Positions 48,150-48,769 of a stretch of 64,000 nt of DNA are shown in pieces. The stretch lies in assembly GCF_053078305.1 (NCBI RefSeq), contig NZ_CP166879.1; one strand, 5' to 3'. The notes under the pieces are model-generated. The model saw only the letters and a program-made list of their open reading frames with translations. It ran no database searches and had not been told where the DNA came from. Both the position numbers and the translations under genes were made by a program. Numbering within the stretch: the first letter of the stretch is position 1; the number at the start of each line of letters is the position of its first letter.

Positions 48150-48176
48150 AGAGAAAACCCCTCCGAAGAGGGGCGA
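48150..48176 (-). terminator. intrinsic terminator (minus-strand sense)
   Basis: On the minus strand: GCCCCTCTTCGGAGGGG hairpin followed by TTTTCTCT. Confidence 0.45.
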
Positions 48177-48201
48177 GTGTAGCGTAATGGAGTGTTATGT
48201 A

Positions 48202-48321
48202 GCATGGTGCCGGGTGCCTCCCGGTGAGTTCAGTATCAGCACCTGAACCCGCACAGATAAGGGATGTGACCAAACACCTACGATACTGATATGCCCCGCC
48301 GCTCAGGGGGATTCACCATGC
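48202..48321. repeat. ERIC/IRU-like palindromic intergenic element, copy 1 (120 bp)
   Basis: Bounded by 8-bp terminal inverted repeats GCATGGTG...CACCATGC; contains GCTCAGGGGGATTCAC, close to the ERIC terminal signature. Confidence 0.45.
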
Positions 48322-48610
48322 ATTATTTTTTTAACAAATATCCCGTAAGACCGACAATAATCCACTGACTGAACTGTGAAGTATTTAACATTTACCGATA
48401 AAAAGCTGCAGCTGCAGTGGAAAAATACGAAATCACATCATGCCCGATTGCTGACTCGCATCCTGCCAATCGAACGTCGGGCGAACAACTGATCGAATAC
48501 ATCGGAATCCGCAGACAAAAAGCACTGCAGTCTCACGACTGTGCGTTATATATGTCAGCGCCTGTAATATAAGACGGTAATGGGGTCAAAAATCGTGGCG
48601 TTGGCATATA

Positions 48611-48639
48611 CAAAACAAAACGCCCCTCCGTAGAGGGGC
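48611..48639 (-). terminator. intrinsic terminator (minus-strand sense)
   Basis: On the minus strand: GCCCCTCTACGGAGGGGC hairpin followed by GTTTTGTTTTG. Confidence 0.45.
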
Positions 48640-48666
48640 TGACGCTGCGTATCTGTATCATCATGC

Positions 48667-48769
48667 GCATGGTGCCGGGTGCCTCCCGGTGAACAAACCG
48701 TTCGTGATACCAGTCAGCAACATAGGAAATTAATGGTATCACCCCACCGCACAGGGGGATTCACCATGC
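48667..48769. repeat. ERIC/IRU-like palindromic intergenic element, copy 2 (103 bp)
   Basis: Same terminal inverted repeats and the shared internal block GGTGCCGGGTGCCTCCCGGTGA as copy 1; the central region is diverged. Confidence 0.45.

Follow-up and report, generated by a model that had tools for sequence, protein, structure and literature searches.

Two predicted STnc100-family small RNA genes in tandem in a non-phage genomic island of Escherichia coli

Results and Discussion

Genomic context of the locus

The window, by which we mean the whole 64-kb stretch of DNA analysed, is a mosaic genomic island of E. coli that is of non-phage type and is not a lambdoid prophage. Its genes include a dolP-like lipoprotein, a DUF465 protein, two small RNA (sRNA) genes, a member of the endonuclease/exonuclease/phosphatase (EEP) family, YqaE, a LuxR-type regulator and YadA-like adhesins, and also a type I secretion locus that includes a giant repeat protein. 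The two sRNA genes, referred to here as copy A (48148-48357) and copy B (48610-48805), both lie on the minus strand. The DUF465 gene (75 aa; 47806-48033, minus strand) begins about 115 nt downstream of copy A, and the EEP-family gene (363 aa; 49172-50263, minus strand) lies upstream of copy B; both genes were identified from the open reading frame list and from the RefSeq annotation of near-identical loci. RefSeq annotation places no feature under either element, and the open reading frames that overlap them are mechanical calls inside structured RNA. Between the copies (48345-48611) nothing recognisable was found, and this segment is present as a whole in 3 genomes only. In the closest genome the same stretch is located about 10 kb from tRNA-Phe, together with an integrase, and adjoins a capsule cluster.

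Assignment to the STnc100 family

A scan of the whole 64-kb window at the Rfam gathering threshold returned exactly two matches, both to RF02076 (STnc100, described in Rfam as "Gammaproteobacterial sRNA STnc100"; gathering score 47 bits) and both on the minus strand. Copy A scored 136.8 bits (E = 5e-30; 48148-48350) and copy B 98.4 bits (E = 4e-20; 48610-48798), each over model positions 1-206, the E-values being covariance-model values for the whole window. Both matches are untruncated and cover the closing stem, the internal hairpins and the terminator, with a few non-canonical pairs flagged within the variable interior. An independent model of the body alone (R1) also matched the window only twice, at copy A (86.8 bits; 48322-48200) and copy B (76.1 bits; 48770-48665), and the next match had an E-value of 0.41. 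Judged by its sequence, the pair therefore represents tandem genes of the known sRNA family STnc100, related to EcOnc27 and PasD. The Rfam scan had been set beforehand as a test of novelty, and since a known sRNA family was matched the elements are not new. The finding is real but ordinary: the family has already been described, these copies are unannotated, and any Rfam-based annotator would label both. The gain for annotation is two sRNA genes of a known, virulence-linked phage family, which evidently occurs outside lambdoid prophages too.

The first-pass annotation had described the elements as ERIC-like. Like ERIC/IRU repeats, they are imperfect intergenic palindromes of similar size, and the 10-mer GTGAATCCCC is common to both, but the likeness is limited to that 10-mer. 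We searched both strands of the whole window with each 22-nt half of the ERIC core (the ERIC1R and ERIC2 primer sites) and obtained no match with up to 3 mismatches, so the elements are not ERIC-like. Unlike ERIC, they have their own predicted promoter and terminator and belong to a different curated family. The same annotation had considered a type I toxin-antitoxin pair improbable, in agreement with the lack of any Rfam match to sok/hok or another type I antitoxin family in the window or in 47900-49100. A tRNA-like nature was considered because the topology of the body resembles a cloverleaf; ARAGORN detected no tRNA in the window, the elements are free of Rfam tRNA matches and the loop of P5 is 5 nt long. 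The short repeats CTCAGGGGGA and ACCAGTCAGC had hinted at a third, degenerate copy around 49028-49085, which we rejected, as this segment gave no Rfam match at E <= 1 and no match to body model R1 run unfiltered.

Anatomy of the two copies

Each copy comprises a predicted promoter, a structured body, a spacer and an intrinsic terminator. The two align end to end, including about 70 nt upstream, with identical ends and a divergent interior. The 8-bp inverted repeats reported to bound each element, GCATGGTG / CACCATGC in plus-strand letters, are present in copy A (48202-48209 / 48314-48321) and in copy B (48667-48674 / 48762-48769), and correspond to the outer closing helix (P1) of the STnc100 consensus. 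The reported internal block shared by the elements was likewise recovered. It lies within a direct repeat of 26 identical nucleotides, GCATGGTGCCGGGTGCCTCCCGGTGA (48202-48227 and 48667-48692), and consists of the P5 hairpin CCGGG-AGGCA-CCCGG with the 3' strand of the closing helix immediately after it.

In copy A (all features on the minus strand), the 5' strand of P1, GCAUGGUG (48314-48321), pairs with 48202-48209, a helix that agrees with the outer helix of the Rfam consensus and covaries across relatives. It is followed by the P2 hairpin CCCCCUGAGCGGCGGGG (48294-48310), whose loop has the conserved form YNNGCGG and which is found in the Rfam consensus, by RNAalifold and in pair counts. The next segment, UAUCAGUAU (48283-48291), pairs with the loop of P4 (48234-48242) in a pseudoknot identified by a helix search against partner-shuffled controls and by pair counts; P4 itself has the form GGGUUCAG-GUGCUGAUA-CUGAACUC (48226-48250). 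An invariant block (48202-48224) that is part of the 26-nt repeat holds P5 and then the 3' strand of P1, CACCAUGC. Beyond the body lie a 27-nt spacer, UACAUAACACUCCAUUACGCUACACUC (48175-48201), which is predicted to be unpaired and is a putative seed, and the terminator GCCCCUC-UUCG-GAGGGGU + UUUUCUCU (48149-48174). In position the spacer is homologous to the PasD seed and to the PasD region recovered in RIL-seq chimeras. The U-tract UUUUCUCU is short and interrupted, and weaker than the 8-U tail of PasD1.

The body of copy B (48667-48769, minus strand; from the fold and the Rfam consensus) is closed by P1 (48769-48762 with 48674-48667) and contains P2 (48758-48742), a nested P3 helix GUGAUACCA/UGGUAUCAC (48742-48734 with 48713-48705), a short P4 hairpin GAAC-GGUUU-GUUC (48703-48691) and P5 (48689-48675). 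It is followed by a 27-nt spacer, GCAUGAUGAUACAGAUACGCAGCGUCA (48640-48666), also a putative seed, and by the terminator GCCCCUC-UACG-GAGGGGC + GUUUUGUUUU (48612-48639), both on the minus strand. The spacers of copies A and B are unrelated to each other.

The GC hairpin and U-tract noted earlier after each element on the minus strand were found at 48174-48157 (GCCCCTCTTCGGAGGGGT + TTTTCTCT) and 48639-48622 (GCCCCTCTACGGAGGGGC + GTTTTGTTTT), and the gap of about 25 nt said to precede them measures 27 nt in each copy. These hairpins have no T-run on the plus strand and are therefore not bidirectional. The surrounding 1.7-kb region contains 7 terminator-like sites, compared with 1.5 ± 1.2 expected from shuffles.

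Predicted promoters and 5' ends

Upstream of both bodies lies an invariant arrangement, TTGTCN-18-TAAAAA-6-G, that resembles a promoter. For copy A it would comprise a -35-like hexamer TTGTCG (48352-48357), an 18-nt spacer, the extended -10 element TGT + TAAAAA (48328-48336) and, 6 nt further, a predicted transcription start at the G of GCAUGGUG (48321). For copy B the candidate elements (48776-48805) are TTGTCC (48805-48800), 18 nt, and TGC + TAAAAA (48784-48776), with the predicted start G at 48769, again 6 nt after the -10. A generic promoter scan misses both candidates because it demands T at position 6 of the -10 hexamer.

We fetched the PasD loci and compared them with the window copies. 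The PasD1 promoter consists of TTGACT, an 18-nt spacer and TAAAAA, followed after 7 nt by the published 5' end, which was mapped at NC_011601 1060260 (PMC8550237 supplement). This 5' end is the G of GCAUGGUGAAUCC and is homologous to the predicted start G of GCAUGGUG. From the PasD1-like geometry the minus-strand RNAs are predicted to run from 48321 to about 48150 (copy A, about 172 nt) and from 48769 to about 48612 (copy B, about 158 nt), which matches the extent given by the first-pass coordinates. Among the elements listed, most relatives of the main variant have a promoter at the same distance, which would place the start at P1.

Comparison with known relatives

STnc100 RNAs are known from phages of pathogenic E. 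coli and Salmonella, and the members studied are Hfq-associated sRNAs of lambdoid and Stx prophages. In E. coli O157:H7 EDL933 the majority of the 11 STnc100 copies are transcribed, and STnc100_4 was confirmed by northern blotting (PMC5331693). An STnc100 copy just downstream of stx2B overlaps EcOnc27, also called sRNA103 (PMC4104026, PMC7873438, PMC12711010), which is crosslinked to Hfq and positive by northern blotting (PMC4104026, PMC7873438) and whose overexpression leads to more fimZ and espA transcripts (PMC4104026, PMC7873438, PMC12711010). STnc100 has also been found in outer-membrane vesicles of STEC (PMC12370729), and a preprint uses matches to it to recognise sequences that came from phages (Zhu, Shabalina & Storz 2026, 10.64898/2026.05.13.724894). 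The closing stem, P2, P4, P5, spacer and terminator of the window copies are the same as in STnc100, including EcOnc27 and STnc100_1-11 of EDL933, and the family is likewise multi-copy and often tandem. They differ from it in location, the window pair lying between the DUF465 and EEP-family genes, whereas the usual site of STnc100 is between Q/PR' and the lysis genes. Copy B differs further in that P3 is nested rather than a pseudoknot, and its combination of body and tail is rare.

PasD1 and PasD2 of EPEC E2348/69 (Pearl Mizrahi et al. 2021) share ancestry with STnc100 (10.64898/2026.05.13.724894). These RNAs of 173 and 172 nt are abundant, verified by northern blotting and present in Hfq RIL-seq data (PMC8550237); their chimeric reads map to the 3' ~50 nt, and the target motif CUCACA is complementary to a UGUGAG seed just upstream of the terminator (PMC8550237 and supplement). 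In common with the window copies they have P1/P2, the promoter geometry, the 5' G (predicted in the window copies) and a single-stranded region ahead of the terminator, and their length compares with the predicted ~172 and ~158 nt here. However, PasD lacks the CCGGG-AGGCA-CCCGG hairpin (P5) and scores only 37.7-41.4 bits against RF02076, below the STnc100 gathering score, so the window copies are STnc100 proper and not PasD. The PasD seed UGUGAG is absent from both window spacers, UACAUAACACUCCAUUACGCUACACUC and GCAUGAUGAUACAGAUACGCAGCGUCA.

In EHEC, lambdoid prophages carry the sRNA dyads AsxR/EcOnc27 and AgvB/EcOnc06 (Tree et al. 2014), in each of which one member is an STnc100-type RNA. A search of the window at the gathering score, and of 47900-49100 at E <= 1, matched neither AsxR (RF02703) nor AgvB (RF02702); with no convergent or antisense partner of this type detectable, the EHEC dyad arrangement is absent here.

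Conserved fold and pseudoknot

Relatives were gathered by scanning viral contigs with the 18-mer ACCGGGAGGCACCCGGCA, which yielded at least 120 loci and at least 140 distinct elements; because they were selected on this block, its conservation in the set is uninformative. The fold tests used 59-140 diverse relatives among the elements listed. P1 forms across them with strong covariation, as GCAUGG/CCAUGC, UUGUGG/CCACAA, AUGCGG/CCGCAG or AUGCAG/CUGCAU, and among the elements listed 5.30 of its 6 free pairs form on average, compared with 4.28 ± 0.07 with shuffled partners. P2 shows compensatory CG-to-GC exchanges between the main and alternative variants described below. RNAalifold applied to 59 diverse bodies recovered both P1 and P2, and each variable pair was backed by 12-15 sequences with compensatory changes. 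When P1, P2, P4, P5 and the pseudoknot were scored together, 83.5% of cells were paired, versus 70.5% after shuffling and 40-48% when slid, and the covariation score of the observed alignment was reached by none of 500 shuffles. Across the relatives listed, the closing stem has 56 G·U and 22 A·C pairs when read in the minus-strand sense, a bias that fits an RNA read from the minus strand of the window. Together with the two full-length RF02076 matches, this supports the earlier proposal that the elements are candidate sRNAs of the minus strand. Structured RNAs in that orientation had been predicted at about 150 nt, a length to be replaced by the ~172 and ~158 nt estimated above. Folding of the single sequences, suggested at the outset as a check, agreed with this structure for copy B (z = -2.7, with none of 200 shuffles reaching the same stability) and less clearly for copy A (z = -1.3).

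The segment directly 3' of P2 has its complement in the P4 loop, and both sides change together. In copy A the strands are UAUCAGUAU and GUGCUGAUA; in relatives they take forms such as CCAGUC/GACUGG, CUGGUG/CACCGG and AAUGACCG/UGGUCAUU. Among the elements listed, the best matched helix has a mean of 6.81 bp, versus 4.88 ± 0.11 for mismatched partners, with 70 distinct helix types, and in a formal pair count each of the 6 pseudoknot pairs varied in both of its strands. Pairing per helix, at 60-68%, is depressed because the MAFFT register is imperfect in the variable interior. In copy B the equivalent helix is nested in the usual way, as the hairpin GUGAUACCA...UGGUAUCAC ahead of the short P4. 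The consensus line of RF02076 shows no pseudoknot, and we found no mention of one in STnc100-type RNAs in the literature on the family cited here. The conserved STnc100 body contains a covarying pseudoknot that is absent from the Rfam model.

Forms of the element and exchange of tails

Element forms were classed on 156 elements with enough flanking sequence among those listed. Of the main P2 variant, 82 of 120 have a terminator, after a spacer with a median of 24 nt (mostly 20-32), and 38 have none. The alternative P2 variant (GAAUGCGGC...) is followed by a terminator in 0 of 36 cases among the elements listed; these elements have no promoter and sit upstream of unrelated phage ORFs, and one body-only element listed abuts a tRNA, directly upstream of it. 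Body-only forms match model positions 31-147 of RF02076 only. No consistent downstream gene was found for elements without a terminator, the ORFs being diverse.

Tandem arrays are common among the relatives listed, with spacings clustered at about 250 nt and about 465-485 nt, so that the window pair, spaced at 465 nt, is typical. One contig has five matches, and another has three tRNAs and then two copies.

The sister strain E. coli JNEC-KY202 lacks 467 nt of the DUF465-EEP intergenic region and has a single element there, in which the promoter and body of copy B are joined to the spacer and terminator of copy A (junction TCACCGGGAGGCACCCGGCACCAUGC). By its sequence, this hybrid is the product expected from recombination between two identical blocks. 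The same tail (at least 85% identical) occurs on unrelated bodies (less than 55%) in 25 element pairs and the converse in 3 pairs, and the tail of copy B is found on unrelated bodies in six viral contigs at 82-90% identity. These patterns indicate that recombination at the invariant block moves tails, made up of spacer and terminator, from one body to another. A broader statement, that the STnc100 body is a compact pseudoknotted scaffold, widespread in enterobacterial phages, whose tails are exchanged at the P5/P1 block (TCACCGGGAGGCACCCGGCACC...), is offered only tentatively, as we consider it rather doubtful. If true, the window would represent the two-copy parental state and the sister strain a chimera of body B and tail A, and the family would possess a built-in route to sRNAs with new target specificity.

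The pseudoknot, the promoter-defined 5' end common with PasD and the recombination of bodies and tails are modest additions that may be of use to specialists on STnc100, PasD and EcOnc27. Such side observations suggest where the seed lies, why targets diverge and why the body is strongly conserved, and they leave the verdict unchanged: this is a member of a described family. Less routine are the non-phage island, with the pair between the DUF465 and EEP genes, the pseudoknot and the swapping of tails.

Proposed mode of action

We consider it probable (roughly 70%) that copies A and B are two adjacent, independently transcribed genes for trans-acting, Hfq-bound sRNAs with seeds in the spacers and the body as scaffold. 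Each gene would be transcribed from a sigma-70 promoter with an extended -10 (TTGTCN-18-TAAAAA), starting at the first G of GCAUGGUG, and the RNA would consist of a structured body at the 5' end (~105-125 nt, with the 8-bp stem as its closing helix), a mostly unpaired 27-nt spacer and a Rho-independent terminator. Such RNAs would most likely bind Hfq through the U-tail of the terminator and act in trans by base pairing via the spacer just upstream of it, the conserved body serving as a stable scaffold. Since the two spacers are unrelated, copies A and B would address different targets. This reading builds on the family membership, anatomy, covariation-supported fold and PasD1-like promoter geometry found in the sequences; expression at this locus, binding of Hfq and use of the spacers as seeds we infer from relatives. 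PasD is the only relative with interactome data and, as it falls below the STnc100 threshold and has no P5, carrying its seed logic over to the window copies is an extrapolation. RNAduplex comparison of both spacers with the 184 translation-start regions in the window gave no convincing local target, the best duplex of copy A being no better than those of shuffled seeds and the best duplex of copy B lying inside the frame of another gene.

A conserved body with a hypervariable putative seed is the reverse of what is seen in most base-pairing sRNAs, and it suggests that the body has a function of its own. Our main rival explanation is accordingly that the pseudoknotted body is itself the functional unit, as a protein-binding or decoy RNA or a structured phage module, with the spacer and terminator serving only for transcript termination and base pairing of the tail, if any, being secondary. 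It would account for a body that is far more conserved than the tail, with two near-invariant hairpin loops and a covarying pseudoknot, and for the body-only versions, matching RF02076 positions 31-147 alone, which have neither promoter nor terminator and precede unrelated phage genes or, in one case, immediately precede a tRNA. We nevertheless think it improbable, because the Hfq RIL-seq chimeras and target motif of PasD map to the 3' tail and not to the body, and because conserved tail modules recur on different bodies, which points to selection on the tails. Nor is any partner protein consistently encoded nearby, the downstream genes being diverse. Under the tentative scaffold view given above, the body might also have a function of its own besides carrying exchangeable tails, since body-only versions are embedded in phage mRNAs and tRNA precursors.

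Distribution and the origin of the locus

Copy A is present in full length in 262 of 5,426 complete E. coli genomes and is at least 99% identical in 82 records, and in many other E. coli genomes it occurs together with the DUF465 gene. This association, in which the DUF465 start codon follows copy A after ~115 nt in the same orientation, raises the possibility that copy A is a cis-acting leader of that gene, similar to an attenuator or riboswitch, in which the body senses a signal and the terminator controls read-through. The layout of structured domain, linker and terminator does resemble a transcriptional riboswitch, and the weak U-tract of copy A makes read-through plausible. However, hundreds of phages have the same element ahead of unrelated genes, bodies freely exchange their tails and terminators, and there is no conserved anti-terminator pairing because terminator sequences differ across the STnc100 family. 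The DUF465 gene was also considered as a phage moron travelling with the sRNA, an idea rejected when tblastn found no match in 50,697 phage records; lacking a phage homologue, its association with copy A is local. We regard regulation in cis as very improbable.

Exact copy B is restricted to 3 of the 5,426 complete E. coli genomes, although its body alone occurs in several hundred E. coli genomes and its tail occurs separately. The rarity of copy B is one of several observations that would fit inert relics, that is, phage-derived ERIC/MITE-like repeats in a decaying island, unexpressed or functionless, with hairpins that at most would terminate or insulate transcription from the EEP-family gene upstream. 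The lambdoid late-region context, which is typical of STnc100 though not strictly defining, is not found at this locus, relatives of this mosaic island contain IS elements and pseudogenes, and copy number at the locus varies by recombination. On the other hand, both copies retain an intact predicted promoter, all helices and a strong terminator, copy A recurs in the 262 genomes and 82 records mentioned above, the ERIC core is absent and family members elsewhere are abundantly transcribed. Inert relics seem very unlikely, and this reading, like that of a cis-acting attenuator, is less likely than a pair of trans-acting sRNA genes.

An exact 22-mer search of genome contigs returned only 5 species representatives, a number that is due to the use of an exact query and says little on true host range. 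When the literature was searched for the motif sequences under a different name, only a qPCR primer and an unrelated paper came up. Phage relatives at 70-82% identity were found in 352 records, mostly from Stx-converting phages, and the closest phage copy sits between the nin/Q region and holin S.

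Rearrangement of the tandem pair

The two STnc100-type sRNA genes of the window, copy A and copy B, were compared with the corresponding region of the sister strain E. coli JNEC-KY202 (window 48034-49171 against NZ_AP045178.1, 4431-5101), which carries only a single element. This element is chimeric, with a promoter and structured body from copy B and a spacer and terminator from copy A, and its junction coincides exactly with a 26-nt block common to both window copies. The JNEC-KY202 state is accounted for by a 467-nt deletion that arose through recombination between copy A and copy B. 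The segment separating the copies (48345-48611) was found whole in only three of 5,426 E. coli genomes, and it includes a small hairpin, TGCAGTCTCACGACTGTG (48526-48543), with a terminator-like score on either strand.

Within each copy, the terminator hairpin (CCCCTCCGNAGAGGGGC, plus strand; 48157-48174 in copy A, 48622-48639 in copy B) is similar to the RNA's own P2 hairpin (CCCCNCCGCNCAGGGGG; 48294-48310 and 48742-48758, respectively). Strand exchange between the two hairpins could in principle occur in both copies. This likeness is not a family-wide property, as more distant relatives have different terminators.

Relatives in viral and other contigs

STnc100-type elements are also arrayed in tandem in viral contigs, up to four or five together with a period of approximately 250-260 nt (L125, 8708-9687; L035, 4089-5246; L017, 3093-3739; L072, 4441-5443). 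Three tRNA genes immediately precede the array in L072. At a further locus (L117, 6919-7110), a tRNA gene (anticodon CAU) lies within about 10 nt after one element, an arrangement that suggests co-transcription of the element with the tRNA precursor. Other viral contigs (e.g. L011, L014, L016, L020, L022, L029, L037, L075 and L078) carry a variant of the body marked by a different yet compensating P2 hairpin, GAAUGCGGCUNAGCGCACGC, with neither promoter nor terminator. Unrelated phage ORFs follow about 30-190 nt downstream, and these bodies are placed as if they were parts of mRNAs. A typical E. coli-type element was also seen on an 888-bp contig (NZ_JPLE01000080.1) of an assembly labelled Xanthomonas pisi, which most likely reflects contamination and not a true extension of the host range.

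Neighboring features

Directly downstream of the DUF465 gene, a near-perfect hairpin with an A-run on one side and a T-run on the other (AAAAGGCACCGTGGAGCCCCCGGTGCCTTTTT, 47730-47765) looks like a bidirectional terminator; its weak match to our model of the STnc100 body (E = 0.41) was spurious. The EEP-family (endonuclease/exonuclease/phosphatase) gene at 49172-50263 (minus strand) is an intact 363-aa ORF in the window. S19-141 and JNEC-KY202 have near-identical loci, in which the annotation lists this gene as a pseudogene interrupted by an internal stop. Further along, a 2,357-aa ORF (55798-62871, minus strand), with relatives that adjoin a type I secretion system and bear the annotation GA-like or beta-strand-repeat protein, lies opposite a 1,844-aa ORF (56794-62328, plus strand). 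This plus-strand frame is probably a shadow ORF produced by the repetitive sequence.
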